Virus record (IMG/VR): IMGVR_UViG_3300028797_000145
Location: 1 to 64,000 of that record
Source of the DNA: a virus
Taxonomy: Duplodnaviria; Caudoviricetes
Direction: 5' to 3' (one strand)
Length of the DNA stretch: 64,000 nt
Shown here: one piece after another, positions 1 through 39,680 of the stretch
Numbering within the stretch: the stretch's first letter is position 1
Layout of the letters: each line of letters starts with the position of its first letter
The notes under the pieces: model-generated
What the model was told of the DNA's origin: nothing
Seen by the model: the letters and a program-made list of their open reading frames with translations, nothing else
The model's database searches: none
Translations under genes and position numbers: made by a program

Positions 1-558
1 ATAAGGGGAGGGGGTGGTTTTTGCGAGACCCCCCTATACCCTCCTTTATAAATCTCCATAGGGGGCCAAATTGCTAAAAATTGATAATTTAGCAAAAATT
101 GAAAAATTCTAAAAATTGGCAAAAAATTCAAAAATTTTACAAAATTGGCCATTTTCTAAAAAAGCTACTTTTTGTAGAAGTAGTCCATAAGTCCAAAATA
201 GTGTTATTGCATAATTTTCTATCATTTTAGAGATTTTTATTAAATGAGTATTGATGTTATTCAAATGAAGTTGAATCAAAGCTATCCGAAACAGCTTGTG
301 GTAGCAATAGCAAACTAATCCAACTGGTTCAAAAGCTATTTGCACTCAATTTCTTGAACATTGAAAGAGAACTCTTTATTAGTTTTATTGTTTAATCAGA
401 CTAGTTAATAGCAACAAAAGAAGTAAAGCACTTAGCAGGAATGGTAACTGGGAGTCTGTCCCAAATGCATGGTATCCTTGATGCTCTTAAAGTCATGTGG
501 TATACAAATCTATTCATTCCCACTAGGTGCTTACTATTCATGTTAAAGTTACTATTGA

Positions 559-1436: not shown

Positions 1437-4307
1437 TTAGTTTCCACCAGTAAGATACTTCGAAACTGTCGAAGTACTAAGTCCAAGAGCTTTCGCAATC
1501 TCAGAATTTGTCTTTCCCATTGCAGCCATCGAATTGATTCTCTGTTGTTTAGCAGGAGTAACTTCTTTGAACGATCTAGGAGTTGCTCTTTCTCTAAGTT
1601 TGTCAGTATCTGTATACTGGAGAATCTGTGATAGCTTGTTTTCGGAAATTGCTCCAGACTGAATAGCTTCCCATTCTTTGTCATCAATATCAATAGGGTT
1701 TCTTTTAGCTCCTGTCTGGATTCTAGCCTTTGTTAAAGCTTGTTGACTTAACTTCTGGTATTCTTTCTTGTTGTTCTTGACAGTAGGCTCCATAGCAACT
1801 CGTCTTGCTAACTCTCTGTTTGCTATTAATTGAGCCTGTGTTTCTTTTTGCTTATTAGACTGAGCAAATTTCAGTTTCTCATCTAGAGACTTTACCTGAT
1901 CCTGGTAAACTTTAGCTGCTTCTTTCTTATACTCAAGACGATTTGTGTAAACCATCTCTTTTCTTGCCTCATTAGCCAATGACTTCAATTTATTGGCATA
2001 ATCGGCATAAGCTAGCTCTATAGGATGCCTCTTTTCAGATATCAATTTATAGGCATCGTCTACTTCTGCCATTTGCTTACTTCCCTGGGTCTTTTGTTTG
2101 ATCTTCCCAGTTTCGTAATACTTGGTACGCTCCTTACCATTCTCATCAATATAAGTCTCATTGATGAATTTTCCATTCTTATCCTTCAAATATCTACCAG
2201 TCTCAGGATCTACTTTTCTGACCGGTTTTCTATCAGGATACTCGAGGTCATATGCATTCTTAAATATCAATGCCCCTTCAGGCTTCGACGGGTCATACCA
2301 CTTTTTACCCTTCTGATTGATATTTGCATCTCCTCTTCTTCGCAAAACTGTTTCCGGAGCAGACGCTCTAGATATAATAGTACTTGCTCCCATGCTATCT
2401 TTTCCGTTCTTTCCTTCATGGAGCATGTACTTCTTTCTCAAAAGGGAAATATCATTGTCTGCTTCGGACTGTTTGTAGTCCAAATGATGCTTTTCGGCAT
2501 CGATGACAACCATAGAATGCCTAACCGCTTTTTCGATTTCATCATCGCTTGCACCTTTGATGGTCATATCAGTTATCAAGTTAGAAACCCTGCCCATTTC
2601 CTGCTGGGTATTCTTCATCTCTTTCATTCCAGGACGATATGCATATTCCATCTTTGCATCGAAATCTTTAAGTCTTTCGAAAGGTGGTCTGGAATCGATC
2701 TTTATTTTATCATTTGTGGGAATAACCATAACCGTATCCCCATCAAAGTCGGCACCAGAAAGCTGATCTGCAACTTCTTTTCGAATTCCAACCGCATCTT
2801 TGGGGTTGGTTCCAAATATCCTTTTACCTTCAGCATTCTTATTGTTAACTGTCAAGATTGGAATCTCGAAAGTGCCTCCATGAGGAAATCTCACAAGTGC
2901 AACTTTTTCACCATCTTGATAGTTTGGTGCATAGATCTCATTCTGCTTCAAAGAAGTCAATGGTAATATAACTTGATACTGTTGTCTTGGTAAAGCAGCA
3001 GCTTTCAAATGAACAGAAGCGGAATCACAATTGTTAGCAAACTCTTTTAAAAGTTTCTTCTTAATTGTTGGGTTTTCAAGATTGTTAATCTCTGCAAACT
3101 CCGTTTCTTTATCCGCAATTGCTAGATCAAGCTGTCGGTTAACCAATTTTCTGTTCTGCTTTGCCAAAAACTGAGAAGGGAGGTCATGACTCCATTCGCC
3201 CCAATCACCTTCGTCGCCTCTTTTGTTAATTAGAGACATCTTTTCTTCACCGGTCTTGGGATCAATATAATCGTACTGGCCACCTTTCTCTTTTATCAAC
3301 GATCCAAATGGATTTTCCGGATCATTTTTGATCTTCTTAAGAACTGTGTTGTTCTTGTCATCTCCTAATATCGGAGTTCCTTGCTTCTTGTTAGTATTAA
3401 ATCTCACATCAATACCATCTGGAAGGTCATCAGCATATACAGCCATACCTTTCAAATAGTGAGTTCCATCAACAAGAATTCTAACCTGAGCATAGTTAGA
3501 CTCACCCAACGAAATATCAGGCACTCCTCGTCTAAGCTCAATCACACCGTCTTTGTCAACACCGCCTTCTTCAGCGTACTTGACTTCGAGTCTTTTAGGA
3601 TCCAAACTCTGAGGATATCTAAAAGGCTTAGTGATCTTTTCTCCATCCTTGGTCAAGATTTCATCGTTGGTGTGATCCTTCAATGTATGAAGCTTCGAGA
3701 AATCGTAAATATCTTTGTACTCTGTTCCAGGAGGGCACACAACACTAACTGTTGTATACTTTCCAGGATTTGTTACCTGAGGGATTCTACGATTATAAAC
3801 TTCATAGCCTTGCTGTTGTAAAAGCAATACAGCTTCGTCAAGTTTCTCTTTAGAAACCTGAATTCCTTCTTCTCGCTCTACACCGGGCGATAATATAATT
3901 GGTCCTTTACTGTCTACAGCATTCTTCAAAAACTGGGATGCAGTTTTAGCTTTGTTTGCCCGCTCAACTGCGTTCTCGTTGAGCAACGACCTTACAGAAC
4001 TCTCTCCAGCAAGACCAAGCTCTTTCGCAATTGCTTCTTTACTCCATCCATCATTTAGTAGCTTCTTAGCTTGAGCTCGCTGATCGTTCTTAACCTCATC
4101 CTTAGCCATACGATATATCTTTCTAAGCTGTGTGGTTGTTGTATTAAACTTCTCAGCGATTTCTTTTTCGCTCAATCCTTCTGACCTGTACTTGTTGTAT
4201 CTGGTGTAAACATCAGTCATGTGCTGAAACGGATTCTCACCAGAACCCCAAGGATATCTACCAGATCTGCGAGGCATGCCATAGTGCTCAAGTTCCATAA
4301 ATATCAA
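1437..4307 (-). CDS. Putative single-subunit two-barrel (YonO/RdRP-like) DNA-dependent RNA polymerase with three HTH motifs
   Basis: Catalytic-type LSGADFDGDTV motif (DxDGD), upstream RFPHGG and YLKGMAV motifs; HTH-like segments GLSEKEIAEKFNTT and GWSKEAIAKELGLAGESSVRSLL at the N-terminus and GKTNSEIAKALGLSTSTVSKYL at the C-terminus. The start may be Met at 4298. Confidence 0.75.
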   Translation of the reverse strand: MIFMELEHYGMPRRSGRYPWGSGENPFQHMTDVYTRYNKYRSEGLSEKEIAEKFNTTTTQLRKIYRMAKDEVKNDQRAQAKKLLNDGWSKEAIAKELGLAGESSVRSLLNENAVERANKAKTASQFLKNAVDSKGPIILSPGVEREEGIQVSKEKLDEAVLLLQQQGYEVYNRRIPQVTNPGKYTTVSVVCPPGTEYKDIYDFSKLHTLKDHTNDEILTKDGEKITKPFRYPQSLDPKRLEVKYAEEGGVDKDGVIELRRGVPDISLGESNYAQVRILVDGTHYLKGMAVYADDLPDGIDVRFNTNKKQGTPILGDDKNNTVLKKIKNDPENPFGSLIKEKGGQYDYIDPKTGEEKMSLINKRGDEGDWGEWSHDLPSQFLAKQNRKLVNRQLDLAIADKETEFAEINNLENPTIKKKLLKEFANNCDSASVHLKAAALPRQQYQVILPLTSLKQNEIYAPNYQDGEKVALVRFPHGGTFEIPILTVNNKNAEGKRIFGTNPKDAVGIRKEVADQLSGADFDGDTVMVIPTNDKIKIDSRPPFERLKDFDAKMEYAYRPGMKEMKNTQQEMGRVSNLITDMTIKGASDDEIEKAVRHSMVVIDAEKHHLDYKQSEADNDISLLRKKYMLHEGKNGKDSMGASTIISRASAPETVLRRRGDANINQKGKKWYDPSKPEGALIFKNAYDLEYPDRKPVRKVDPETGRYLKDKNGKFINETYIDENGKERTKYYETGKIKQKTQGSKQMAEVDDAYKLISEKRHPIELAYADYANKLKSLANEARKEMVYTNRLEYKKEAAKVYQDQVKSLDEKLKFAQSNKQKETQAQLIANRELARRVAMEPTVKNNKKEYQKLSQQALTKARIQTGAKRNPIDIDDKEWEAIQSGAISENKLSQILQYTDTDKLRERATPRSFKEVTPAKQQRINSMAAMGKTNSEIAKALGLSTSTVSKYLTGGN

Positions 4308-4864
4308 TCCTCCTCGCTCTTAATCTTGGTGATGATCTTGTCAAAAGTAATGATCTTGTCCATGATCGGTGCAATGTCTTCCACCGTAGGATTGCATACT
4401 AAAATATCATCGTTCTGGTAGATACGCAGTTCCATTCCCAAGTCTGCTGGCTTGTACTTGTACTCCAAACAGAACAGAGCTGCATAAATCATTAACTGTT
4501 CCATGTGTGCTGGTATCAGACCAGTCTTCAAATCGTGAATTCTCAAAAGACCTTTCTTGTCCAATACAATTGCATCAGCTGTGCCGAAACAGTTGTCTGA
4601 AAAATATAAAACCTGCTCCGGTTTCATTCCGAAACCAATAGCATCATTCACGTACATGTTCAAAGTTTTCTGAGATCTTGGTAATCTCTGGTCCAACTTG
4701 ATACAAGTAGCCGCAAACTCATGAAGTTCAGTACCTCTTAAAGTTGCGAGGTGTTTAGAATATACCTCACCAATCTTTTCCGGATCGTAATTGATCCAGT
4801 GGTACTTACTTGCTCCGAGGAATGCGTGCTGTCCTACTAGGTTTGAATGCTTGTTCCAAATCAT
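4304..4864 (-). CDS. PD-(D/E)XK exonuclease (Cas4/DUF2800-like)
   Basis: CFGTADAI ... IHDLKTG ... QLMIYA motifs typical of phage RecB/Cas4-like nucleases. Confidence 0.7.
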   Translation of the reverse strand: MIWNKHSNLVGQHAFLGASKYHWINYDPEKIGEVYSKHLATLRGTELHEFAATCIKLDQRLPRSQKTLNMYVNDAIGFGMKPEQVLYFSDNCFGTADAIVLDKKGLLRIHDLKTGLIPAHMEQLMIYAALFCLEYKYKPADLGMELRIYQNDDILVCNPTVEDIAPIMDKIITFDKIITKIKSEED

Positions 4865-5126
4865 CGAGAACCTCCTCCTTGTTCTCAGGACTAATAAATC
4901 TTGAGAACGACATCTTGTTCATCAACTCAACATAGTATGGTTGATTAGGTCTCTTTTTGGCATTCTTCTCCTTTTTGCATTCCAGGGTTGCCCACTTCTT
5001 CTTGTACAATATCAATAGGTCGGGTACTCCTTGTTTGTACCTGGGATCCAGTTTCATTACCAAGCAACCTTCAAACCTTTCTTTTAGCTCTTTAATGAGC
5101 TTGGATTGAAAATCACTTTCCTTCAT
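4806..5126 (-). CDS. VRR-NUC domain nuclease (Holliday junction resolvase-like)
   Basis: MKESDFQSKL...GVPDLLIL...LECKK...RPNQ pattern; start moved to MKESDF at 5126. Confidence 0.75.
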   Translation of the reverse strand: MKESDFQSKLIKELKERFEGCLVMKLDPRYKQGVPDLLILYKKKWATLECKKEKNAKKRPNQPYYVELMNKMSFSRFISPENKEEVLDDLEQAFKPSRTARIPRSK

Positions 5127-5201
5127 AAGCAACGTCCTTTCAAAAGCAAAGAGAGAAAGAAATTTTTGTGCGTACAAAAAGTGCGCATAAAACGTCTCTC
5201 T

Positions 5202-5230
5202 CTCATAAAAGGGCATGATTTTTCTGCGAA
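5202..5230 (-). promoter_or_regulatory. Phage-specific promoter-like element (TTCGCA-N14-TTTTATGAG) upstream of the nuclease/RNAP operon
   Basis: Same 29-bp architecture as 17 other copies (see findings). Confidence 0.65.
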
Positions 5231-5282
5231 TGCCAAAAATATAAATTTTGTTAGTAGTCGGAACTTCTATACTCTGTTCTAC

Positions 5283-11525: not shown

Positions 11526-11566
11526 AAGAAGAAAGAGCCCTGGTAAATATAACCCAGAGCTCCTTC
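11526..11566 (-). terminator. Intrinsic terminator-like hairpin with UUAUAUUU in the loop
   Basis: Minus-strand GAGCUCUGG-GUUAUAUUUA-CCAGGGCUC-UUUCUUCUU; a G-U pair indicates the minus-strand RNA. Confidence 0.7.
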
Positions 11567-11745
11567 TCCATAATGGAATGTGTTAATATTGCGATCATCT
11601 AAATAGCCTACCATTACGACCTACAGTTTTCGAATAATACTGCTGCCAAAAACCATCGATCGAACAGTAATGCATAGCTAAAAATAGATCAGGCTTGTCA
11701 TTGTCATCTTCTTCATCATCCAAATCATCTGAATCAGAAATATCA

Positions 11746-12281: not shown

Positions 12282-15200
12282 TTATTCTTCAAGAGCCCAA
12301 GGAAGTTGTTCATCCTCAGGCTCATTCATGAAGTTCTCAGCGAAGTTTACGTCGCCTTTGTAAAACTCAGGGTTCGGATAGGACATGTCTTCTCCAGGAA
12401 TATAATCCGGTCCGACATAAGGATCCTCAGACACAAACCATGTGTAATCACCAAATTGCATGATGTCACCCATAGCATTGTGCGCTTGAGTTTCGAAATA
12501 TGACATGTCGATCTCTTTCTCTAACCCGAGACCTTTGATCAATTCCGATTCCTTCCATCTTGTGCCCTTTGTTCCACTTACTGAATAGTACTTTCCGTCC
12601 TTTTCTCTCATCAGAAGTCCTCCGCCGCTGCCCTCAATTACCGGACAGAACTGGCCAACCTTCCCGATGAAAATATAATTGTGACCCTTTTCGATTTCCT
12701 TTACCAGACGTGAACCCTCGCTCTCCCAAGTTGTATCAGACAACTCACCTTTCTTATACTTCGATTGAAGCTTCTTATACTCCTTCTCGAACAAAGAAAC
12801 ATCGGGATAGCCTTCGTTCATGTCTAAATATAACGCTGAAGTCACACTGTTTGTCACACAAAGATCCCTGAATGATACCGGATCCTTGCTAAACAATGTC
12901 TTGAAAATATAAGGTACCTGGAATTCAGTACCAGTTGCTGTCCAAGGTGTTTCTACAACTTCACCCGTGGGCAATTCGAACTTATGCGGTCCATCTGCAT
13001 ACTTAGCAATATAAACCGCATCATTGATCAGACACATTCTCTCATACGTAGCCTCATGCTCAAATGTGTAACCGTACAGTTTACCATACTCCATAACAAA
13101 CTCAATGATCTCAGGAGTTGCATCCGGGATCTTAATAGAGTCTGTCTTAATATGAGCAACTTTGTATCCCATACGTTGAACTTCGTGCTTGAGGTTGATC
13201 ATGAACAACGCTCCACGCTTTGCCACGATGTTGTCCACGTTCCGATCATCCTTAAACGGATTCGAGAATGATGCTGATGTCAAACCATACACCGAGTTAA
13301 TCGGAATCTTAATAGCATTTGCTAACTGCTTGGAAGTCATTTCTCCGTCTTTGACTTTCTGAATATACTTCTCAAGCTTTCCACCAAACATTCCAGACAG
13401 TTCTTCCCAGTTCTGGTGTTTGATGTTAAGTCTTCCTGTTACAAGATCTTCATAGTTCTCGGTGTACTTACCAAACAATTCCTCTGCAATAATACTTGAC
13501 GGATGCATTGAAGCAATATCAAGAAGTGCCACATTACCATACATTCCAGGTTCTGCGTAGACATACCCACCTTCTGAAGGATTCTCTCCTCTGTATGAGC
13601 TCTTACCAAGTTCATACTTGTACCCAGGAAATATAGGTCTACCATCTGCGTCAAACACTGTCCACTCTTTGTCATAGATCTCAGGAAGATCACTGTCTAC
13701 AGCTTTAGACATATCTCCAAGATCTCTCCAGTTTAATTCGGATTGTGTATTCCTTTCTTTTCCAAATATCAGTCTGGTGGTTAACGAGTTGGATGTGTCA
13801 TTCACAGTCATTCCTGTGATGTCGGCAAGGATCTGTCTTGCTGTCCAGTCAGCATTTAGGTAATTGAATGCTTCTTCAGTTGCATTTACATCGTTACAGC
13901 AGTACTCAGCAACTCGATCCCATAAGTTGACAGGAATGTTACCGTTTTCGTCAGCTTGCGGTGCATGAGACTCTTTTGACTCAACTTCCGGATCCGATGC
14001 GGGAACCCAATGATCACCAAGAATATAAGCCCATTCCGGAACCGGTTTGTCCCAAGGAATACCAAGCTCATCATGGTGGATTCCCATCTTGATCTCAAGT
14101 TTCTTAAGCGAAGTTTTGTTGTCCCCATTCGCGAAGTCATAAATATCAGTGTATGACAAGTTGTATGCTTCACTAAAGAAGCTCTTCTTGTCTCCACTAA
14201 TGATCTTCTGCGACAAGTTGTACAGTTGCTTATTGTTGTAACCCATTAATCGGGCATACAGGATGTGGTTATCATACCTCCTGCAATTGAAACCTACGAG
14301 TTTGAACTGAAGAAGACCTTCGATCTGTTCGGATGTAGGATTGATCATTCTGTTTACATCTTTTGCTCCAATCTTTTTCCAACATAGAACAAACAGATTC
14401 GGGAACACCTCAACGTCGAAGAATATAATTTCTCCGTCCGTACCCTTCTTAGAATCTCCTCTAACGTCGATTGAAGGATACACCATCTCTCCTACTTCTT
14501 TTAAAGCTTCTTCGTTAGGTTTTCCAAGCAGATGAATATCATCCACTACCATCAAGCATCTTTTAGACTGATGTGTACTTGACTGAGCAAACGCGATCAA
14601 TGCGTTCTTCATGTCACGAATATCATAAGCCATACCAGACTCGTATGAGTCATCCGTAAGCTTCTTAATGAAGTTGATGCTGGATGAAGTGTCTCCATGA
14701 AATTCCTTTTCGAAGTTTTTCTCGATCATGCTTCTTAAGTTCTTTTCATCCTTAATTGCGTTTTGATTAGTTGCCACTTTTCGCTCCTTTCTAAGAGGAA
14801 GTCCCGAACTAATCGTAGCGATCGCTAAATTCGTACAAAGCGTTAATTTTCTTCTTAACGACGCATTACCTTTGGCAACTTTCACCTCGACATGCTCAGA
14901 CACATGATCCGCCAACCTGCTTACATCTCCCTGGTAAATATAATGTAGATGAATACCAGCACCGGATTTGCTTAACTCCGCATAAGTTGGTGGCCACTTT
15001 GCTGCCTCTGCCAAGTTCTTTTCCAAAGACTTGTTACCGTCGTCTCCCGGAATATCAAAGTCAATAATGATGTGATTCTCCGGAACTTTCACATAGTGAA
15101 GTTTAGAAGTGTCAATATCACGAAGAGTTGTCTTGCAGTTCGACCATTTGTACATCGGTCTATTCTCTTCTGCTGAAGACAATTGCGCAGGACAGTCACC

Positions 15201-16586
15201 ATACTCCGCATCAAATCGTGAGGGCTGCTGTTGCATGACGATCCAGTTTTTTTCTTCTTCTTTCACTTCAACCTTCCTTTTGTTCTTTTCGAACTTGTCT
15301 ACACGGAAACCCGAGTACCAACTACGAACTCTACTTCCGTCTTCAAATTGTTTCCTTTCTTCGTACTCTTCCCAATACGCTTTGAACTCCTCTCTAAATA
15401 TCCTGTACTGCAGCGGATACGGTGTCTTTGTGTCATCACAGAATGTCTTGTACCGTTCCCAAGCAGCCTTAAGGGTTATGCCATCCGCCTTCTTAAACTC
15501 ATAGTAACCATCTACCATGAAGTTATAAAAGTCGTTAGTCACTTCGAGCATGTTGATCGGAATATAATCGTCGAACATTCCAGGATCTGACAAATATATA
15601 TCCAGACAATGACTAGCGATGGCACCCAGTTCGAACTTCACGTTTTTTACAAGCTGGGCATACTCACGACGACCGATGAGGTTCCCACTAGGAGTTACAT
15701 CGATCAATCTTCTGAGCAAACCTGACTTTGCGTCCGTGATCTTAACTGGTTTGTTCGTACCTAAAAATAAAAATGCCTTGAATCTGTTGGCATAAGTGGA
15801 TTTGTATTTCTCGTTTACAGTCATCGTTTCGTGAGAAACTAAACTGTTGAGTCTTGTGTTATCTTCAATTCTTGACAAGTCACCATCGTGTTGGATTGCG
15901 ACCAGAGGATTTGTCTTGAACGCTTCCAACGCAAATACGTTCGTACTCGATCCTAAAGCTTTCGCATCGAATGCCGACCAATATCCGTCGAAGAGCTGTT
16001 CAATAATGTTAAGAATTGTAGACTTACCTGTTCCTGCCTCACCATAGAATACTAAGAACTTCTGTATCTTCTTTGAGTCACCTGCTACCACACTTCCAAT
16101 AGCCCATTCGATCTTTTTTCTCTCTTCCGGAGAATATAACGTGCCGATGAGCTTGTCGTATGATGAATAGTCGCCGGGTTCCAGAGGATACGAGAGCATC
16201 TTGCTGGCATAATCTGTCTTCTTAACTTCGAAGTTCGAAAATATAAGATTCTCGTCAAGCATGTGAAAACTATCTCTACATTGCTTTTGACAATACTTAT
16301 GCCACTTGTCTATCGAACCCGAGTCTGCATCCCACATATGTAACACTCTTGCGGTTGGCATCTCAGCTTTTCTAGACTGATAGTATGCATCAAGTTCTCT
16401 GTCTATAAGTTGAATGACATCATCTTCTTCGGTAGACCACAATCCTTTGTCTTCCAACCAGATCGCATAGAAATCCCCACCTCGAATCATTAAGTCTTTT
16501 GACTTATTGTTAATAATGAATTTCGGGAAGATCTCTATTCCACCATTCTTGGTGGATCTTGTAGAAACCATGAAAAAATCCACCAT
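12282..16586 (-). CDS. Fused SF3 helicase / primase / family B DNA polymerase with 3'-5' exonuclease
   Basis: GEAGTGKST Walker A; IIDFD...SKSGAGIHLHY primase (AEP/Prim-Pol-like) motifs; exonuclease FFDVEV, GFNCRRYD, YCCNDV; PolB motifs DIASMHPS, KIPINSVYG, KTDS. Start set at MVDFF with RBS AGGAG. Confidence 0.9.
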   Translation of the reverse strand: MVDFFMVSTRSTKNGGIEIFPKFIINNKSKDLMIRGGDFYAIWLEDKGLWSTEEDDVIQLIDRELDAYYQSRKAEMPTARVLHMWDADSGSIDKWHKYCQKQCRDSFHMLDENLIFSNFEVKKTDYASKMLSYPLEPGDYSSYDKLIGTLYSPEERKKIEWAIGSVVAGDSKKIQKFLVFYGEAGTGKSTILNIIEQLFDGYWSAFDAKALGSSTNVFALEAFKTNPLVAIQHDGDLSRIEDNTRLNSLVSHETMTVNEKYKSTYANRFKAFLFLGTNKPVKITDAKSGLLRRLIDVTPSGNLIGRREYAQLVKNVKFELGAIASHCLDIYLSDPGMFDDYIPINMLEVTNDFYNFMVDGYYEFKKADGITLKAAWERYKTFCDDTKTPYPLQYRIFREEFKAYWEEYEERKQFEDGSRVRSWYSGFRVDKFEKNKRKVEVKEEEKNWIVMQQQPSRFDAEYGDCPAQLSSAEENRPMYKWSNCKTTLRDIDTSKLHYVKVPENHIIIDFDIPGDDGNKSLEKNLAEAAKWPPTYAELSKSGAGIHLHYIYQGDVSRLADHVSEHVEVKVAKGNASLRRKLTLCTNLAIATISSGLPLRKERKVATNQNAIKDEKNLRSMIEKNFEKEFHGDTSSSINFIKKLTDDSYESGMAYDIRDMKNALIAFAQSSTHQSKRCLMVVDDIHLLGKPNEEALKEVGEMVYPSIDVRGDSKKGTDGEIIFFDVEVFPNLFVLCWKKIGAKDVNRMINPTSEQIEGLLQFKLVGFNCRRYDNHILYARLMGYNNKQLYNLSQKIISGDKKSFFSEAYNLSYTDIYDFANGDNKTSLKKLEIKMGIHHDELGIPWDKPVPEWAYILGDHWVPASDPEVESKESHAPQADENGNIPVNLWDRVAEYCCNDVNATEEAFNYLNADWTARQILADITGMTVNDTSNSLTTRLIFGKERNTQSELNWRDLGDMSKAVDSDLPEIYDKEWTVFDADGRPIFPGYKYELGKSSYRGENPSEGGYVYAEPGMYGNVALLDIASMHPSSIIAEELFGKYTENYEDLVTGRLNIKHQNWEELSGMFGGKLEKYIQKVKDGEMTSKQLANAIKIPINSVYGLTSASFSNPFKDDRNVDNIVAKRGALFMINLKHEVQRMGYKVAHIKTDSIKIPDATPEIIEFVMEYGKLYGYTFEHEATYERMCLINDAVYIAKYADGPHKFELPTGEVVETPWTATGTEFQVPYIFKTLFSKDPVSFRDLCVTNSVTSALYLDMNEGYPDVSLFEKEYKKLQSKYKKGELSDTTWESEGSRLVKEIEKGHNYIFIGKVGQFCPVIEGSGGGLLMREKDGKYYSVSGTKGTRWKESELIKGLGLEKEIDMSYFETQAHNAMGDIMQFGDYTWFVSEDPYVGPDYIPGEDMSYPNPEFYKGDVNFAENFMNEPEDEQLPWALEE

Positions 16587-16636
16587 TTTTAAACTCCTAT
16601 TCTTTTTTAATTTAGACAAATTAAGAAAAATATAAC

Positions 16637-16939: not shown

Positions 16940-17013
16940 GTTTTTCTCCTTTCATAGTCAAAAATATAAGTGGATGATGTCATCCCTCATACTAGACCGT
17001 GTAATTTTTGCGC

Positions 17014-17523
17014 TTAGTAGTTTTCATTAAGCCACCACAAAACCTGATCCCAAAGTTCGACTCCCCTCAGGTCTCTAGGAGGCTCAATTAGTGTGACAAT
17101 GCCACCTTTGCCATCTGGTAGGTAATCTCGTTTTAGAAAAGCTTCAATCCTAGCCATACAATATAATTCGTTGAACCGGGAATTAACTTGACCTGCTAAT
17201 CCGAGGCTTCTGATCATAGCTCCAAATATGTTTCCCATTTCCTCATTCGAGTCATCTATGATCTGGCATACCCTAAGCGTCAAGGCAGCCATCATTTCAA
17301 GCACCGAGCATTCTTTGTTGTCCAACTCGGACGCGATGAGAGACGAAGGAATGTTCTCGTCATACCCAAAACGGTATCTAAGTTCAATTCCGTCAGCCTC
17401 TCGATTCGCATCCATAGGGATGGTATACGTGAACGGTCGTCCGTACAAAAACTTTAACAAAGAATCGTACTCATCAGGTGCATCTACCAATTGGCAAATA
17501 TAATAGAAGTACTCCTCTCTCAT
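17014..17523 (-). CDS. Conserved-looking phage hypothetical protein
   Basis: 169 aa, DANREADGIELRYRF and CSVLEMM segments; operonic. Confidence 0.7.
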   Translation of the reverse strand: MREEYFYYICQLVDAPDEYDSLLKFLYGRPFTYTIPMDANREADGIELRYRFGYDENIPSSLIASELDNKECSVLEMMAALTLRVCQIIDDSNEEMGNIFGAMIRSLGLAGQVNSRFNELYCMARIEAFLKRDYLPDGKGGIVTLIEPPRDLRGVELWDQVLWWLNENY

Positions 17524-21446: not shown

Positions 21447-21569
21447 GTTGATACCATCCTTTCTTTAAAAAGTAGTGTTTTTGTGTTATCCATATAGGAC
21501 CATGTTTTTTCTGCGAATTGCAGAATATGAAAAAGGCCCATGCATTTCTGCACAGGCCCTCACATATGA

Positions 21570-22325: not shown

Positions 22326-22366
22326 GTCATTCTCCTTTCATGAATATAATTTTGCAAGCTAAAGAG

Positions 22367-22439
22367 AAGATGCTCCGGGATTCGAACCCGGGACCAACTG
22401 TTTGTTTGACAGATGCTCTACCATCTGAGCTAAGTATCT
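22367..22439 (-). tRNA. tRNA-like RNA with non-canonical anticodon loop (CAAACAA; nominal anticodon AAC)
   Basis: Minus strand AGATACT-TA-GCTC-AGATGGTA-GAGC-A-TCTGT-CAAACAA-ACAGT-TGGTC-CCGGG-TTCGAAT-CCCGG-AGCATCT-T: canonical D and T arms, one acceptor mismatch, T27-T43 mismatch, A33 instead of U33, no encoded CCA. Confidence 0.75.
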
Positions 22440-22472
22440 TCTCCATATAGGGGTATGTTTTTTCTGCGAATA

Positions 22473-22604
22473 TCACATATGCTCCATTCGATACTCCTGA
22501 TAATATTGCTTATCCGCAGCAACCTTACCAGCATACCTTCCGATCAAATATATCGTTAAACCGATAACAAGTACCTTTCCGAATCCGTTAATCTCAATGT
22601 TCAT
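22473..22604 (-). CDS. 43-aa single-TM peptide (below the ORF-track cutoff)
   Basis: MNIEINGFGKVLVIGLTIYLIGRYAGKVAADKQYYQEYRMEHM with RBS GGAGG. Confidence 0.6.
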   Translation of the reverse strand: MNIEINGFGKVLVIGLTIYLIGRYAGKVAADKQYYQEYRMEHM

Positions 22605-23431: not shown

Positions 23432-23469
23432 AATCGTTCTCCTTTCTGGGATTTGGTTTCATTGTTCCA

Positions 23470-23670
23470 TTAAAGGTTGTGCAAAAATTGCGATACCTGC
23501 TGATCACTCACATAAATATCACCGTTAACGTGGAGACGATACCCACCGTCTTTTCTCCGATCGATCTGAATGTTCTCTATCTTAATGTCCTCTACGTACT
23601 TGGACAGTTTTTTCGTAACGAATTTTGCTATAAGCCCCTTCATAAAATCACTGCAAATTCTCAATTGATC
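23470..23670 (-). CDS. Small hypothetical protein
   Basis: Likely start at MDQLRI (RBS GGAGGAGG). Confidence 0.5.
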   Translation of the reverse strand, partial: DQLRICSDFMKGLIAKFVTKKLSKYVEDIKIENIQIDRRKDGGYRLHVNGDIYVSDQQVSQFLHNL

Positions 23671-24310: not shown

Positions 24311-24437
24311 ACTAAATTCCTCCTTAAAAATTTGTTGTCAACGTGTTCCATATAAGGACAGGTTTTTATTGCGAAAGGAAAGAGGAAAAGACCTAAATAT
24401 AACTTTAAGTCTCATCCTCTTGTTTAACTCGGTCACT

Positions 24438-24494: not shown

Positions 24495-24611
24495 ACTGTC
24501 ACCTCCTTTAATGTTTTAGTTTCCGTGTTTCTCATTAAAGAATGTGCAAAATGTGCGAACAAAAATCACTGTATAAATATAACTCGGTTTTTTGTCACCT
24601 GCGTACGGTTT

Positions 24612-35132: not shown

Positions 35133-35270
35133 GTTTTCGTGCTCCTTTCGTAAATATGATTTAGTTAACTGAAACAAAAGGAGAGTGTGCCACCAATTAT
35201 GGCGAGCGCATACAAGCGCTTTCACTCTCCATTAAAGAACGTGTAAAATGTGCGAACAAAAAAGAAGAGC

Positions 35271-35474
35271 CTATTTACGGCCCTTCCTAATTTCTGCTTC
35301 CTCAATAAATATTACTGCCATGAATAGCAATGTATACAATAGAAACAAAATTACTGATGGAACCAATGTTTCTTTGATACTATATCCATCCCATCTCAGG
35401 AATATGATACTTATCATCATTATGGCTCCTATCAAATATCTGATTCCATTAAGCATAACTTTTACTACTTTCAT
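35271..35474 (-). CDS. Small two-TM membrane protein
   Basis: Two hydrophobic helices; own promoter-like element 35502-35530. Confidence 0.65.
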   Translation of the reverse strand: MKVVKVMLNGIRYLIGAIMMISIIFLRWDGYSIKETLVPSVILFLLYTLLFMAVIFIEEAEIRKGRK

Positions 35475-35557
35475 TTCACAGTTCTCCTTTCTATTTTATT
35501 CTGCATAATAGCAGGTGTTATTTGTGCGAACAAAAAATAGGAAAAGCCCAAGCGGGC

Positions 35558-35767
35558 TCATCCTACTACTTCTACATCTCTATAAATCTCTACGACATCA
35601 CACGCGTTAATCGTGTAAACTACGTTTTCTCTTTTGTTCTCTTCTCTAAGTTGCTTAAGTTCTTTAGCTTTCTTACATGCCTTACTTGAGGCTTTAATTG
35701 TAGCCGTTGTAAGTTCCGTTACTGCTATGTTTATAAGTGCCTTTTGAATAAAGTTAAGTTCCTTCAT
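35558..35767 (-). CDS. Small hypothetical protein
   Basis: Likely start MKELNF (RBS GGAGG); promoter-like element 35802-35830. Confidence 0.6.
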   Translation of the reverse strand: MKELNFIQKALINIAVTELTTATIKASSKACKKAKELKQLREENKRENVVYTINACDVVEIYRDVEVVG

Positions 35768-35895
35768 AGTGTTTTCCTCCTTTTCTAAAGCGTGCTTCTG
35801 TCTCATATAAGGGTGTGTTATTTGTGCGTACAAAAATGAAAAAGAAAGAGACCTGGTTAAAACTGCTGCCAAGTCTCTTTCATTGGAAAGGAGGT

Positions 35896-36207
35896 TTAGA
35901 TTGTTCCGTTAATGACTTTTAAATATTGTTTTCTTTCTTCGGGTGTTAATTTCTGAAAGTTCTCATAAAACTCTTCTAAAACCGAAGTCCTTTTTTCTAC
36001 TGAATTTACATAATCATGAATCAACCGTTGTGCTTCATTAACATTTGTTTCTAATACTGCCATATTAACAGCATCTTTCTTAAGCCTTTCGATTTCTTCT
36101 TCCGTGTCTTTCAAAGACTTTCGATCATAGACTTTAAGTAATACTAATCCTGCTCCAGTTAAAACTACACTAACTGTTAAAGCTACAATAAGTTTGTTAT
36201 TCATATC
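35896..36207 (-). CDS. Single-TM coiled-coil protein (paralog of 36802-37113)
   Basis: MNNKLIVALTVSVVLTGAGLVLL...EEFYENFQKL...KVINGTI. Confidence 0.7.
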   Translation of the reverse strand, partial: DMNNKLIVALTVSVVLTGAGLVLLKVYDRKSLKDTEEEIERLKKDAVNMAVLETNVNEAQRLIHDYVNSVEKRTSVLEEFYENFQKLTPEERKQYLKVINGTI

Positions 36208-36483
36208 GAATACCTCCTTTACTATCCTTTCCATAATAGAAGAAGTTAATATTGCAAAAAAAAAAAATAGAACGTGGGTTTCTCGTTAATGTCGATTCTG
36301 TATACTATATCAACAGCCATACTCCCCGCTTGTGTATGTTCCTACGTATTACCTTTGAGTATATTCGACTAACCTCAATGTAATCCATGTATACCTCTTT
36401 TTCCATTAAAGGATATGCAAATTTTGCGAAAAAGAATAGGGAGTGCAAATATCACACTCCCATAATCTTTTATCCTTCTAATT

Positions 36484-36678
36484 TTACTCCGATTTCTCCT
36501 TTCCGAATGCTTTACGAATAGATTCGAAATAAGCCTCAATCGCTTCGTGTTCCTTATCCCATTCTTTTTGTTTCTTTTCATACTTTTTTATTTCATTTTT
36601 CGTTACTACTATACTAATACCACTTCCAATAATAATTGGTGCACATACTAAAGCTACTATTTTTTCCACTGCGTTCAT
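36484..36678 (-). CDS. Single-TM coiled-coil small protein
   Basis: IVALVCAPIIIGSGISIVV then K/E-rich; own promoter-like element and terminator. Confidence 0.7.
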   Translation of the reverse strand: MNAVEKIVALVCAPIIIGSGISIVVTKNEIKKYEKKQKEWDKEHEAIEAYFESIRKAFGKEKSE

Positions 36679-36801
36679 ACTGTTACCTCCTTTTTAAATA
36701 TAGATTTGCATGTGTCCATAAAGGAATATGTTATTATTGCGAAAAGAAAAGGAACAGACCTAGTAAATATCACTAGGCCTGCACCTTATTGGAAAGGAGG
36801 T

Positions 36802-37080
36802 TTAGATAAATCCGTTAATCTGCTTTAAAACTGCTTTCTTTTCTCCCTTATCTAATTGTTGAAATTGCTTGTAAAACTCATCAATTAATAAATCGTGGTC
36901 GATCCATGTACTCGAAATGTTGTCTTCAGTATCTTTTATGCTATCCCTAAGTCTTTCCTTAAGTTCTTGTAACTCTTTTTCGGTTTCTTGTTCGACCCGC
37001 TTATTAAACTTTCTGATCGTAATATAAGCTGCTCCAGTTGCCAATAAAAGGCTTGTTAAAATAATCGCATTTTTGTTCAT
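36802..37080 (-). CDS. Single-TM coiled-coil protein (paralog of 35896-36234)
   Basis: MNKNAIILTSLLLATGAAYITI...DEFYKQFQQL...KQINGFI. Confidence 0.7.
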   Translation of the reverse strand: MNKNAIILTSLLLATGAAYITIRKFNKRVEQETEKELQELKERLRDSIKDTEDNISSTWIDHDLLIDEFYKQFQQLDKGEKKAVLKQINGFI

Positions 37081-37170
37081 ATTATTACCTCCTTTTCTTA
37101 ACTTCCTTTCCATTAAAGGACATGTATTTTATGCGTACAAAAATAAAAAAAATAAAAGAGAAAGGTGCTG

Positions 37171-37440
37171 TTACGCACCAATCTCTATTGCCTTATCTAA
37201 AACCTTATTTACTTCCATGTACTGTGTCCATCCGTTCTCTCTGGTATACCACTTAGGTTCATCAAAATGGGATACACGAATATAAGGTACATACAGGTCT
37301 TTATACTTCCTAGGGTTCTTTTTCTTCTTCTCATACTCTTCTCTAGAAAGTACATACACCTGATCCAAACCATTATCCGTATATTCCGTATAATGAATAT
37401 TGTGTTCCTCCAAAAAGTTAATAAATTCTTCTTTAGTCAT
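37171..37440 (-). CDS. Small hypothetical protein
   Basis: 89 aa, RBS GGAGG, promoter-like element 37468-37496. Confidence 0.7.
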   Translation of the reverse strand: MTKEEFINFLEEHNIHYTEYTDNGLDQVYVLSREEYEKKKKNPRKYKDLYVPYIRVSHFDEPKWYTRENGWTQYMEVNKVLDKAIEIGA

Positions 37441-37533
37441 AGTCCTTTCCTCCTTTTGGTTTTTTGTTGCATAATAGACTATGCTTTTTATGCGAAAAAG
37501 AAGAGACTATGTAAGCCCTCTTCTTGCTGGTTC

Positions 37534-37866
37534 TTAGTAATGTCTCTTGATGATAAATGACTGGGTAATCTTCGGAAGCGTGAAGAGATACAATGCGGTG
37601 TCGTTCAGACCTGTTGCCAGTTCGGTTCTGCATTTTCTCTCAACTTCTTCGAAGGGAAATGCTCCTTCTTCAAAGCCGGGTTTTGATCCCCAATACTGGT
37701 TACATAATCTGATCCACCTAAGTACATCTTCAATGTTCCGATAAACGTTCCAGACAAGCTGATCGTCAAGTCCTTCTTCAGTTACCGCGCAAGAAACGGA
37801 ATATAATTCCTCTTCTCCCTGGTTCCTAAGCCGTTCTACAGCCTCGTTTAAAGTTTCAGTGTTCAT
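37534..37866 (-). CDS. Small hypothetical protein
   Basis: 110 aa, RBS GGAGG, promoter-like element 37905-37933. Confidence 0.7.
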   Translation of the reverse strand: MNTETLNEAVERLRNQGEEELYSVSCAVTEEGLDDQLVWNVYRNIEDVLRWIRLCNQYWGSKPGFEEGAFPFEEVERKCRTELATGLNDTALYLFTLPKITQSFIIKRHY

Positions 37867-37941
37867 ACTGTTACCTCCTTCTCTGGGTTGTTTAACTACT
37901 TTGTTCCATTAAAGGACGTGCCAAATATGCGAGTATAGGAC

Positions 37942-37971
37942 TTGACAATTCCTACAACAAAAATATAAAAT
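37942..37971 (+). promoter_or_regulatory. Sigma70/SigA-type promoter for the integrase
   Basis: TTGACA at 37942-37947, TATAAA/TAAAAT 16-18 bp downstream, RBS AAGGAG before ATG 38007. Confidence 0.6.
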
Positions 37972-38006
37972 AAAGGAAGTTCTAACTATGCGAAAGGAGA
38001 AATACC

Positions 38007-39200
38007 ATGTTAATCAAATGCCCCGAATGTAGTTTGCAAATATCGGATAAAGCGGTGTCTTGTCCGCACTGTGGTTACCCTCTTAAACCGGAAGCCGTCC
38101 GTACACGGTCTTCAACTAGACGTAAAAGACTTCCAAATGGTTTTGGACAAATATCGAAAATCCGAAACAAATCACTCAGGAAACCTTACAGAGCTATGGT
38201 CTCTGTTGGAAAGGATCCGGAGACAGGAAGGCCAATATGTAAATTGCTTCAACCAGTTGCTTACTTTGCAACATACAATGAAGCTTACGAGGCTCTACTT
38301 AAATATAATAGAGATCCGTCCGTACAAGGCTCTAGCATGACCGTAGAAGAGCTTTTCAATGAATGGTCCGAATGGTACTTCCCAGCTCTAAGTAAATCCG
38401 CAATAGAGACTCATATGGTTGCGTGGAAATACTCAAAACTATTACATCATGTGAGAGTTTCTGAGTTAAGAACAAAAAATATAAGAGACTGTATCGATCA
38501 ATGTGAATCTCTTACTACAAAACCTAGAATTAAGACTCTATTTAGTTTAATGCTTGACTATGCAGTAGAACATGAATATATTGATCAGAACTATGCCAAG
38601 ATTATTAAACTAAACCCTACCATTGCAAAAGAGTTAGGCGTGGTTAAGAACAAACACATAGCATTTACTGAAGAAGAGATAAATATAATGTGGAGGAATG
38701 TTGACGAAGTGCCATTCGTTGATTGGATGTTAATACAATGTTACACTGGTATGCGTCCCAGAGAACTTCTCAATGTACAAGTAGAGAATGTGGATCTAAA
38801 CCAAAATATAATCATAGCTGGAATGAAAACGGATGCCGGTAAGGATCGAGTAATTCCTATCCATGCAAAAATAAGAGGACTTGTTAAAAGTAAGATACGA
38901 GTAGCTGAGTATTTAGATAGTCCCTATCTGTTTAATCAGCCAAATAGCATTGGTATGAGCTATACAACCTATAACAAATACTTCACAGAAATCGTGTTAC
39001 AGTTAGGGTTGAACGAGAAGCACCGACCTCATGATCCTCGTAAGACTTTTGTCACTATGGCCAAAAAATATAACGTAGACGAGTACGCAATCAAAAGAAT
39101 AATAGGCCATGCGACTGGTGACTTAACTGAGGATCGATACACCGAAAGAAATATAGAATGGTTAAAAGAAGAGGTAGAGAAGATAGGGAGCCCGGTTTAG
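38007..39200 (+). CDS. int: Tyrosine recombinase (phage integrase) with N-terminal Zn ribbon and arm-binding domain
   Basis: Catalytic residues: TGMRPRE (R), GMKT (K), HDPR (HxxR), IGH (H), DRY (Y); CPEC/CPHC Zn ribbon. Confidence 0.95.
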   Translation: MLIKCPECSLQISDKAVSCPHCGYPLKPEAVRTRSSTRRKRLPNGFGQISKIRNKSLRKPYRAMVSVGKDPETGRPICKLLQPVAYFATYNEAYEALLKYNRDPSVQGSSMTVEELFNEWSEWYFPALSKSAIETHMVAWKYSKLLHHVRVSELRTKNIRDCIDQCESLTTKPRIKTLFSLMLDYAVEHEYIDQNYAKIIKLNPTIAKELGVVKNKHIAFTEEEINIMWRNVDEVPFVDWMLIQCYTGMRPRELLNVQVENVDLNQNIIIAGMKTDAGKDRVIPIHAKIRGLVKSKIRVAEYLDSPYLFNQPNSIGMSYTTYNKYFTEIVLQLGLNEKHRPHDPRKTFVTMAKKYNVDEYAIKRIIGHATGDLTEDRYTERNIEWLKEEVEKIGSPV

Positions 39201-39373
39201 GACTCCCTTCCAAGTGATTCAAGAGTTTTTATTGATTCTAAGTATAGCCTGTCTTTCTCATCTTTCTTTCTGCCAGATTTCTTTATCTTGTAGATAGAGA
39301 GCGCCAGATCTGCAACAATTGCTAAACCAGATAAAAGTAAGATTTTGTTTTTCATTTTGATTACCTCCTTTAA
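39197..39373 (-). CDS. Single-TM small protein
   Basis: Likely start in MKNKILLLSGLAIVADLAL (RBS GGAGG); exact start approximate. Confidence 0.5.
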   Translation of the reverse strand, partial: LKEVIKMKNKILLLSGLAIVADLALSIYKIKKSGRKKDEKDRLYLESIKTLESLGRES

Positions 39374-39400
39374 GAAAAAATAAGAAGAGGAAGAGACCAT

Positions 39401-39586
39401 TTAGGCCTCCTCTTCCTTTGCTTCCTCATTAAACTTCTCAGCTTGCTCATCCGCTTTCATTGCCAAGGAATCCATTGCTTGTACAAACAGTACATTTGTT
39501 GCTTTCTTTTTCATATACATACCAATTGCTACACATCCTGCTACTGCTACTACAACTACGGTTCCTAATACAACTTCTTTGTTCAT
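39401..39586 (-). CDS. Single-TM small protein
   Basis: MNKEVVLGTVVVVAVAGCVAIGMYMKKK; RBS GGAGG; promoter-like element 39617-39645. Confidence 0.65.
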   Translation of the reverse strand: MNKEVVLGTVVVVAVAGCVAIGMYMKKKATNVLFVQAMDSLAMKADEQAEKFNEEAKEEEA

Positions 39587-39680
39587 ATCGCTACCTCCTA
39601 AAAGTTTTATTGTTGTTGCATAATAGAAGGTGTTAAATTTGCGAACTGTAAAAATAAAAGGGAATGTTAAACTCACGCTC

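Follow-up and report, generated by a model that had tools for sequence, protein, structure and literature searches.

Identification of a predicted single-chain RNA polymerase gene

The DNA analyzed in this study (referred to as the window) represents the first 64 kb of the 86,891-bp virus record IMGVR_UViG_3300028797_000145, and its minus strand carries nearly all of the genes. Along the direction of transcription these include a 1445-aa (amino acid) primase-polymerase, a single-stranded DNA-binding/annealing protein, a helicase, small genes, a VRR-Nuc/HNH-like endonuclease and a Cas4/RecB-like exonuclease, followed by a 956-codon open reading frame (ORF) that extends from TTG 4307 to a stop codon at 1437-1439, a conserved 82-aa acidic protein (PHROG 4303), a repeat array and the end of the genome. 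The 956-codon ORF, which is the subject of this report, very probably encodes a one-piece RNA polymerase (RNAP) that shares its catalytic core with the cellular RNAPs and has DNA-binding modules of its own.

A first-pass annotation made from the sequence had described a 956-aa chain. The open frame does have 956 codons, but the real product is probably 953 aa long and most likely starts at ATG 4298, because in the preceding sequence, GAGGAGG-ATTGATATTT-ATG, the GGAGG lies 10 nucleotides (nt) upstream of this codon versus 1 nt for the TTG. The same start is favored by the alignments of homologues, which begin at residue 5-6, and by the length of the closest relative, a 953-aa protein. Residue numbers of the polymerase follow P0001.

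The three motifs highlighted by the first-pass annotation (GADFDGD, RFPHGG and YLKGMAV) were all found in the ORF, as were two N-terminal helix-turn-helix (HTH) units and a C-terminal one (Table 1). Each HTH unit reached the gathering score of at least one Pfam family: unit 1 matched CENP-B_N at residues 41-65 (22.3 bits versus a cut-off of 21.2), unit 2 matched the HTH of Terminase_5 at residues 75-107 (22.2 versus 20.3), and unit 3 matched, at residues 914-954, HTH_23 (40.3), HTH_7 (30.4) and Sigma70_r4_2 (28.5 versus 25.7). Ahead of these units is a conserved N-terminal motif in which G10, S15, G16, R17, G21, G23 and Q28 are invariant in an alignment of 80 homologues (43-80% identity). Judged by sequence comparison, the combined motif, HTH and family matches of this ORF are far beyond chance.

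Table 1. Features of the polymerase, its operon and the promoter-like motif (positions refer to the window unless marked G000)
Feature	Residues	Position	Strand	Remarks
Single-chain two-barrel RNA polymerase gene (predicted)		1437-4298	minus	953 aa from ATG 4298; mechanical ORF from TTG 4307
N-terminal conserved motif, L-E-H-Y-G...SGRYPWGSG	4-28	4224-4298	minus	Predicted disordered; predicted local distance difference test (pLDDT) <50
HTH unit 1, N-terminal	30-70	4098-4220	minus	Model helices 30-42, 47-53, 58-85
HTH unit 2, N-terminal	75-110	3978-4085	minus	Recognition helix ESSVRSLLN nearly invariant in relatives
Two-barrel catalytic core (predicted)	231-789	1941-3617	minus	Barrels ~240-365 and ~443-531; bridge-helix-like helices 567-607
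YLKGMAV, first (beta-like) barrel	284-290	3438-3458	minus	K286, G287 invariant
RFPHGG, second (beta-prime-like) barrel	473-478	2874-2891	minus	R473, P475 invariant; equals R-x-P of Rpb1 R446/P448
GADFDGD, predicted metal-binding loop	518-524	2736-2756	minus	D520, D522, D524 invariant; Pfam RdRP match at 511-612
Three-helix unit	876-908	1584-1682	minus	DKEWEAIQ.GAIS nearly invariant
HTH unit 3, C-terminal	914-954	1446-1568	minus	HTH_23, HTH_7, Sigma70_r4_2, GerE above cut-offs
Promoter-like motif before nuclease-nuclease-polymerase operon		5198-5233	minus	Weight matrix
Promoter-like motif copy		11563-11598	minus	Weight matrix
Promoter-like motif copy		16982-17017	minus	Weight matrix
Promoter-like motif copy		21485-21520	minus	Weight matrix
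Promoter-like motif copy, abuts tRNA-Val		22438-22473	minus	Weight matrix
Promoter-like motif copy		23462-23497	minus	Weight matrix
Promoter-like motif copy		24343-24378	minus	Weight matrix
Promoter-like motif copy		24527-24562	minus	Weight matrix
Cluster of ten promoter-like motif copies		35224-39648	minus	Short gene with Shine-Dalgarno site after each; several right behind a terminator-like hairpin
Ten-copy cluster, low-coordinate ends		35224, 35498, 35798, 36226, 36398, 36711, 37105, 37464, 37901, 39613	minus	
tRNA-Val (anticodon AAC)		22366-22439	minus	5' end 5 nt after purine behind TATAAT-like box
VRR-Nuc/HNH-like endonuclease, operon gene 1		4806-5216	minus	PHROG 93 at residues 29-125
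Cas4/RecB-like exonuclease, upstream, operon of polymerase		4304-4864	minus	PHROG 3953, E 9.5e-79
Acidic 82-aa protein (PHROG 4303)		1170-1418	minus	Directly after polymerase gene in every relative examined
Repeat array, ten exact AAATATCAAT copies		559-1168	plus	60-82 bp spacing; non-coding; between last gene and physical genome end
1445-aa primase-polymerase		12282-16619	minus	D5/primase-helicase-like part (DUF5906, AAA) fused to DNA polymerase; PHROG 4210, E=0
Capsid-protease fusion, 701 aa		G000 ~73.2-75.3 kb	minus	Acidic linker between protease and capsid domains

Predicted fold and catalytic residues

An AlphaFold2 model computed from the 80-sequence alignment (pLDDT 85.5, predicted template modeling score 0.74) shows a two-barrel core around DFDGD, as had been expected from the motif, and this core is both the best conserved and the most confidently modeled part of the protein. 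When the model was searched against PDB with Foldseek, QDE-1 ranked first (E 4e-9), followed by P74-26 gp62, plant RDR2, and P23-45 gp64 and gp96, with the large subunits of multisubunit RNAPs, including Rpb1, at lower ranks. A structural search of a viral library returned gp64 and other phage proteins named RNA-dependent RNA polymerase (RdRP). The earlier comparison with QDE-1 was thus borne out at the level of the modeled fold, but the accompanying comparison with YonO found no counterpart in sequence.

The two-barrel superfamily is defined by eight residues, including an R-x-P and three aspartates (Rpb1 R446, P448 and D481/483/485; PMC2919709), and R473, P475, D520, D522 and D524 of the window protein represent five of these eight. 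All five are invariant in the 80 homologues, together with K286, G287 and G523. The set in the beta-like barrel consists of one aspartate and two lysines (Rpb2 D837, K979 and K987; PMC2919709); the invariant K286-G287 fits Rpb2 K987, and R276, K324, D253, D264 and D300 are candidates for the other two residues. By analogy with YonO (PMC5467207) and gp64 (bioRxiv 10.1101/2022.12.01.518664), both of which are DNA-dependent, the window enzyme would also be expected to use a DNA template.

Family membership and earlier descriptions

The protein matched PHROG 4291 over its full length (E=0, 1120.6 bits), with residues 5-954 aligned to positions 11-907 of the 909-position profile, a family that carries the name 'RNA-dependent RNA polymerase'. 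Searches by tblastn identified 250 phage records at 37-51% identity, whose hosts or sources included Arthrobacter, Gordonia, Streptomyces, Rhodococcus, Microbacterium, Curtobacterium, Lactococcus (the 1706 group), Faecalibacterium and human-gut contigs. The family amounts to at least 8000 clusters in a 90%-identity protein collection and to 856 clusters (50% identity) at E <= 1e-30. Most of the 250 records bear the label 'helix-turn-helix DNA-binding domain protein', which is how the first-pass annotation had expected the gene to be auto-annotated, and a few RefSeq or recent records read 'RNA-dependent RNA polymerase'.

This family was known beforehand by computational description. Ruprich-Robert and Thuriaux (2010; PMC2919709) distinguished five YonO-like families, one of which is that of the phage 1706 protein. 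Koert et al. (bioRxiv 10.1101/842583) identified the protein as a signature of an actinophage supercluster (clusters AM, AU, AW, BI, CC, DJ and EL) and of Lactococcus and Faecalibacterium phages, and as the only transcription-type protein common to the whole group. The same authors described an RdRP-like core that contains a DxDGD loop and is flanked on either side by HTH domains, an alignment of the protein to Pfam RdRP by HHpred (probability 95.7%), and a conserved block composed of a helicase, an HNH protein, a RecB exonuclease, the HTH protein and a small hypothetical protein. In the window protein, too, HTHs flank an RdRP-like core on both sides and the core contains DxDGD, and the endonuclease, RecB/Cas4 exonuclease, polymerase and small hypothetical protein of the block are present here, at the right genome end. 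The polymerase can therefore not be called cryptic, as had been suggested, since PHROGs and some RefSeq records already name it an RdRP and the family appeared in print in 2010 and 2021; the result for the window is a confirmation and not a discovery. New points are the argument on the start site that is drawn from tRNA genes, the lack of a sigma gene, the L-x-H link between the polymerase, DUF7211 and the capsid linker, and the conserved genome termini, all of which are presented below.

With the Lactococcus phage 1706 ORF75 family (PHROG 4291), the window system shares full-length homology (37-51%), the HTH-core-HTH architecture and the invariant residues, the VRR-Nuc, Cas4/RecB and small downstream ORF neighbors, the physical right-end location, and a promoter-like motif that is common to both genomes. 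The window phage differs in being larger (86.9 kb), uncultured and of gut type, in the distance from the gene to the genome end (~1.4 kb versus 0.35-0.45 kb), in the ten-copy repeat array near that end, which is absent from the 1706-family relatives, and in its promoter box (TwTwATG versus TATAATG or TATAGTA).

A promoter-like motif in the non-structural half of the genome

A motif of about 30 bp with the consensus ttCGCA-N7-aCA-N5-CTwTwATG-ga recurs in the window genome. Sixteen of its sites align gap-free and were the basis of a position weight matrix (PWM), which found 18 sites on the coding strand and 0 on the other. The PWM scores were bimodal, with the sites at 27.8-41.2 bits and none between 12 and 27. 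All 18 sites fall within window positions 5198-39648, which is the non-structural half, and the PWM scan found no copy in 47 kb of structural genes. In 15 of 18 cases a Shine-Dalgarno site and start codon follow 6-35 nt after the motif, and the promoter-rich region holds 11 terminator-like hairpins versus 2.8 expected, several of which lie directly upstream of sites. The cotranscription of the polymerase with two nucleases that had been proposed earlier fits the overlapping ORFs at this locus and the promoter-like site in front of them (5198-5233). A literature search for the motif sequences found nothing relevant.

Sigma-70-type promoters, in turn, were not enriched over shuffled sequences, either near the gene or in the promoter-rich region. 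The best of them near the operon is TTGACT-17-TACAAT at 5716-5688 on the minus strand (10/12 matches), ~480 nt upstream of the phage-type promoter. No sigma region 2 was found anywhere in the genome at E <= 1. The two sigma-4-like matches in the genome are both HTHs inside the polymerase ORF (one N-terminal, one C-terminal) and represent generic HTH signals, so that the combination of regions 2 and 4 that marks the sigma-70 family was not found. The 'sigma-like' character given to the DNA-binding modules by the first-pass annotation thus comes down to that of a generic three-helix HTH, as sigma region 2 is absent.

Three tRNA genes, in three phages, each lie directly behind a copy of the motif and offer a geometric constraint on the start of transcription. 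Counted from the purine that follows the TATAAT-like box, the 5' end of the tRNA comes 5 nt later for tRNA-Val of the window (Table 1), 7 nt later for tRNA-Ala of ReqiPoco6 and 3-4 nt later for tRNA-Phe of locus L034. A sigma-70-type start, 7 nt after the box, would fall inside the tRNA in 2 of the 3 cases and therefore fits poorly, whereas a start at or next to the purine would suit all three, as far as geometry can tell. In the three tRNAs, anticodon position 34 is A: Val-AAC in the window, Ala-AGC in ReqiPoco6 (L063 2700-2775) and Phe-AAA in an uncultured relative (L034 889-964). Bacterial A34 is normally confined to tRNA-Arg(ACG), and its occurrence here hints at inosine-type decoding or an unusual function of these tRNAs.

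The proposed layout resembles that of T7-type promoters, which likewise span ~25-30 bp, have a fixed geometry and occur in many copies on one genome strand, and in which an A/T-rich box abuts a purine-rich start, as in CTATAGTAGA (1706) and CTATAATGAGA (actinophages). The T7 enzyme itself is a right-hand polymerase unrelated to the two-barrel enzymes; the likeness would lie in promoter layout only.

Conservation of the motif in related phages

The exact pattern CGCR-N7-CA-N6-WWWATR was scanned in relatives, with matches counted as gene strand/other strand. The counts were 13/0 in ReqiPoco6, 10/0 in Gravy, 6/0 in Mudcat, 5/0 in Rima and 3/0 in Camille, and 8/1, 7/0 and 4/1 in three uncultured relatives; reversed-pattern controls gave 1 match in total. 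Additionally, a PWM trained on the window genome only, with a threshold above the maximum of 20 shuffles, returned 13/0 in ReqiPoco6, 12/0 in Gravy, 13/0 in Rima and 5/0 in Mudcat, and 0/0 in an SPbeta control (50 kb). Phage 1706 has a variant, TTTTACA-N5-CTATAGTAGA, about 11 times. The motif therefore recurs in phages of Actinobacteria and of Firmicutes, and in nearly every related locus a site is located ~1 kb upstream of the polymerase gene, before the nucleases. In P23-45, the occurrence of promoter motifs follows that of the respective phage RNAPs, and the same reasoning is applied here.

Signs of packaging into the virion

The GenBank record of phage 1706 gives the label 'structural protein' to orf75, which is the polymerase, and to orf7, and 'unknown' or 'putative' to their neighbors. 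The first 26 residues of the polymerase have invariant key positions yet are predicted to be disordered, and the (acidic)-x-F/Y-L-x-H-Y-G segment within them aligns with the N-termini of DUF7211 (hhalign probability 87.7%, E 3.4e-6, 16 columns). Between the genes for the terminase large subunit and the portal, five genes form a tandem series (G000 ~77.3-80.1 kb; L002 174-2341, minus strand). Four of the five carry the DUF7211 motif Y-L-(A/E)-H-H-G-(I/V)-K-G-(M/Q)-K-W-G, and a 199-aa member joins a polymerase-type N-terminus to the common C-terminal part of the series. Several of these proteins, which are candidate internal or ejection proteins, end in hydrophobic segments, and relatives have 3-7 such genes. 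The (acidic)-x-F/Y-L-x-H-Y-G motif is also present three times, internally, in 1706 orf7.

The capsid-protease fusions of four distant members were compared, and L-x-H-(S/A/G) was found at three aligned positions of the linker. The site just before the capsid domain is present in 4 of 4 phages, and the other two are lacking or varied in 1706. The linker positions are shared with Gravy gp19 and ReqiPoco6 gp26, while 1706 orf10 has L-x-H only before the capsid domain. From their conservation, these are likely to be maturation cleavage sites. In T4, internal proteins have L-x-E sites and capsid-targeting peptides, to which the L-x-H sites are comparable. The N-terminal motif of the polymerase is thus a candidate capsid-targeting or prohead-protease signal, and its sharing with head-module proteins, together with the conserved linker sites, suggests that the polymerase may be a prohead protease substrate and hence capsid cargo. 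Packaging would also fit with a phage-type promoter that drives the polymerase operon itself and with a motif that marks early- or middle-looking genes. Judged by these sequence signs, the case for delivery of the polymerase in the virion is evenly poised.

Weighing of the explanations

Taking all of this into account, we consider it likely that the gene encodes a single-chain DNA-dependent two-barrel RNAP of the 1706 ORF75/PHROG 4291 family that has its own promoter and may be packed into the capsid. The enzyme appears rather likely to read the ~30-bp promoter ttCGCA-N7-aCA-N5-CTwTwAT-R, including the copy before its own operon. In the mechanism that we propose, the HTH units would recognize the upstream boxes of the promoter, and RNA synthesis would begin, in a T7-type manner, at or beside the purine that follows the TATAAT-like box. 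The N-terminal (acidic)-x-F/Y-L-x-H-Y-G signal would pack the enzyme into the capsid, where it would perhaps be trimmed by the prohead protease, and the enzyme would then enter the cell with the DNA, so that transcription could begin without host RNAP. That all of these elements apply jointly, i.e., a protease-trimmed capsid cargo, co-ejected with DNA, that carries out a sigma-free, HTH-guided start at a 30-bp promoter kept across Actinobacteria and Firmicutes phages, is possible but short of probable. If true, this would represent a self-sufficient promoter-specific two-barrel RNAP that is widespread in soil and gut siphoviruses.

Several observations weigh against this explanation, in whole or in part. 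The structure of the polymerase is a predicted model. Pfam RdRP (PF05183) scored 20.8 bits at residues 511-612, below the gathering score of 23.8; no sequence homology to YonO was found by hhalign with the 80-sequence profile (probability 0.2%) or by BLASTP (E 0.89); and PDB sequence searches with the protein and with the 80-sequence profile gave HTH-type matches and no polymerase. Because of the sub-threshold Pfam score and the lack of similarity to YonO, the protein is placed in the superfamily and in the 1706 family and is not regarded as a YonO orthologue; direct homology to YonO was rejected, the likeness being at the fold or superfamily level only. The link between the polymerase and the motif rests on co-occurrence and is correlative. 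Promoter base 9 (G/A) appeared to covary with a residue of the HTH1 recognition helix, the Q located two positions behind the conserved R (raw Fisher p of 1e-4), but this was dropped as evidence, as it came down to 4 phylogenetically independent pairs with a sign test that was not significant. Since the structural half is devoid of the motif, another polymerase or read-through must serve it, and the sigma-70-type promoter upstream of the operon implies that host RNAP could make the first enzyme, in which case virion delivery would be unneeded. The words 'structural protein' for 1706 orf75 are those of a database annotation, and the L-x-H cleavage site is deduced from conservation only. A literature search for the family found no enzymatic, transcript-mapping or proteomic study.

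Some of these observations can be accommodated if the protein is a real motif-reading RNAP that stays out of the virion, with host RNAP transcribing its gene first and the enzyme then running the middle genes, an account that we regard as tenable though not the probable one. T7 RNAP, YonO and P23-45 gp64 work in this manner, YonO and gp64 being non-virion enzymes (PMC5467207; bioRxiv 10.1101/2022.12.01.518664), and the gene resides in the replication module and not among the head genes, with the 10/12 sigma-70-type match upstream of its operon. However, sites of that type are no commoner than in shuffled sequence, and the N-terminal motif shared with head-module proteins, the conserved capsid-linker sites and, at the level of a database label, the 1706 orf75 annotation all argue for the particle. 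The gene is also the last of the motif-driven region and, because of its location at the physical right end, would come to lie next to the head genes after cos joining. The TATAAT-like downstream box, which is perfect in the actinophages, raises the further question of whether host RNAP, alone or with a small phage factor, reads the motif while the polymerase-like protein has another role, such as priming replication at the genome end or making regulatory or antisense RNA. The position of the gene among replication and recombination genes, beside a repeat array that could be an origin, and the correlative nature of the polymerase-motif link would be compatible with this, but we find it improbable. 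The upstream boxes are 5 and 14 nt from the TATAAT-like box, unlike the sigma-70 -35 spacing, the -11 A of the box is not conserved, and the tRNA 5' ends leave no space for a 7-nt gap between box and start in 2 of 3 cases. Moreover, a single motif is used although the hosts belong to two phyla whose promoters differ greatly, no sigma gene is present in the genome, the polymerase is the only group-wide transcription-type protein (Koert et al., bioRxiv 10.1101/842583), and a 1445-aa primase-polymerase is already encoded.

The name given to the family in PHROGs and RefSeq, the weak Pfam RdRP match and the eukaryotic RdRPs QDE-1 and RDR2 as top structural matches could be taken to mean that the enzyme is an RNA-dependent polymerase that turns phage or host transcripts into double-stranded RNA. 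This is very improbable: the RdRP name derives from homology alone, QDE-1 also copies DNA (PMC9508822), YonO, gp64, gp96 and gp66 are DNA-dependent (PMC5467207; bioRxiv 10.1101/2022.12.01.518664; 10.1101/2020.03.07.982082), and three fused HTH units and a genome-wide promoter-like motif suit a DNA template. A DNA-binding regulator with an inactive polymerase core, as might be gathered from records that mostly annotate an HTH protein and from Pfam matches above threshold for the HTH units only, is scarcely credible, as the metal-binding aspartates, the R-x-P and the first-barrel K-G are invariant across the 80 homologues and the core is what is best conserved and most confidently modeled.

Comparison with other polymerases and significance

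YonO of the Bacillus prophage SPbeta (Forrest et al. 2017; PMC5467207) is likewise a single-chain two-barrel phage RNAP of ~100 kDa with a DxDGD loop, and it transcribes a set of the phage's own genes, as proposed here. A text search of the YonO paper for 'helix-turn-helix' gave no hit, so that no HTH is reported there, whereas the window protein has three; additionally, the genes transcribed by YonO are late genes, in contrast to the non-structural genes marked by the motif here. QDE-1 (Neurospora) and RDR2 (plants) are eukaryotic two-barrel silencing RdRPs without HTH modules or promoter-specific initiation. The Thermus phage enzymes P23-45 gp64/P74-26 gp62 (non-virion) and gp96 (virion) have no sequence similarity to the window protein, their promoter motifs differ, and no fused HTH is reported in the P23-45 RNAP paper, as a text search for 'helix-turn-helix' returned none. 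gp96 is present in the P23-45 virion as a tape-measure fusion, in contrast to the N-terminal capsid signal suggested here.

For phi14:2 gp66 and N4 vRNAP, the comparison is one of functional analogy only, both being particle-borne polymerases ejected for early gene transcription, although gp66 is also of the QDE-1-like two-barrel type (bioRxiv 10.1101/2020.03.07.982082). Both are much larger proteins than the window polymerase, whose packaging is a proposal. gp66 was not among the structural matches listed, and only segments of crAss-like proteins matched, weakly; its absence from the list does not argue against a relationship.

All transcription in cells depends on two-barrel polymerases, yet minimal single-chain versions able to find promoters unaided have barely been studied (YonO, gp64, gp96 and gp66). 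The present family is very large, extends over hundreds of cultured actinophages as well as dairy and gut phages, includes cultivable members, and appears to pair its own DNA-binding modules with a simple conserved promoter. It opens questions about how a minimal RNAP core recognizes and melts a promoter, whether host factors are needed and whether the enzyme is delivered with the genome. A compact promoter-specific enzyme with an unrelated fold could also serve as an orthogonal expression tool.

Genome organization and additional observations

The order of endonuclease, exonuclease, polymerase and 82-aa protein is identical in 1706, ReqiPoco6, Mudcat, Gravy, Rima and Camille, and the Cas4/RecB-like neighbor was also identified as such in Mudcat, Gravy and Camille. 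For the VRR-Nuc/HNH-like gene, the listed ATG falls within the promoter-like motif, so that the true start should probably be sought downstream of position 5216. Homologues of the 82-aa protein include 1706 orf76, Gravy gp93 and Mudcat gp95, with T8, D10, N11, P12, P15, W22, D26, G30 and Y31 invariant; an accessory subunit or factor, or a regulator, is a possible role for this protein. A nucleotide search of a phage collection gave no match.

The ends of the contig bear group-wide conserved sequences, GGGGGTCTCGCAAAA.CCACCCCC at one and TTTTCCTCCGGGGGATATTT at the other (window 1-45 and G000 86820-86891), which are shared with ReqiPoco6, Mudcat, Gravy, Rima, 1706 and several uncultured relatives. 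Because they are conserved across the group, they are taken as physical cos ends, which places the polymerase operon at the physical right end. Within the right-end element, TCGCAAAA is similar to the upstream box of the promoter-like motif.

The first-pass annotation had placed the polymerase gene just upstream of a AAATATCAAT array, and the array indeed occupies positions 559-1168, on the downstream side of the gene. On the coding strand its copies read cATTGATATTTT, with TATAG/TATAGG-like words ~25-35 nt further on. In 42 related loci, the region behind the polymerase gene showed no comparable array; of these loci, L045 has three copies of ATTGATATTC and L031 an unrelated five-copy repeat. 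The array was therefore rejected as a companion of the polymerase and is placed outside the conserved system; an origin, a region bound by the terminase, or a stop signal ahead of the cos site are possible roles for it.

Lastly, the whole genome holds 119 copies of the octamer T(G/T)ATATTT on the coding strand versus 4 on the other. The octamer is missing from the initial 20 kb of the structural module and reaches ~24 copies per 10 kb in the non-structural half. In the window its minus-strand copies extend over about 0.5-57 kb, and two terminator-like hairpins hold it in their loops.

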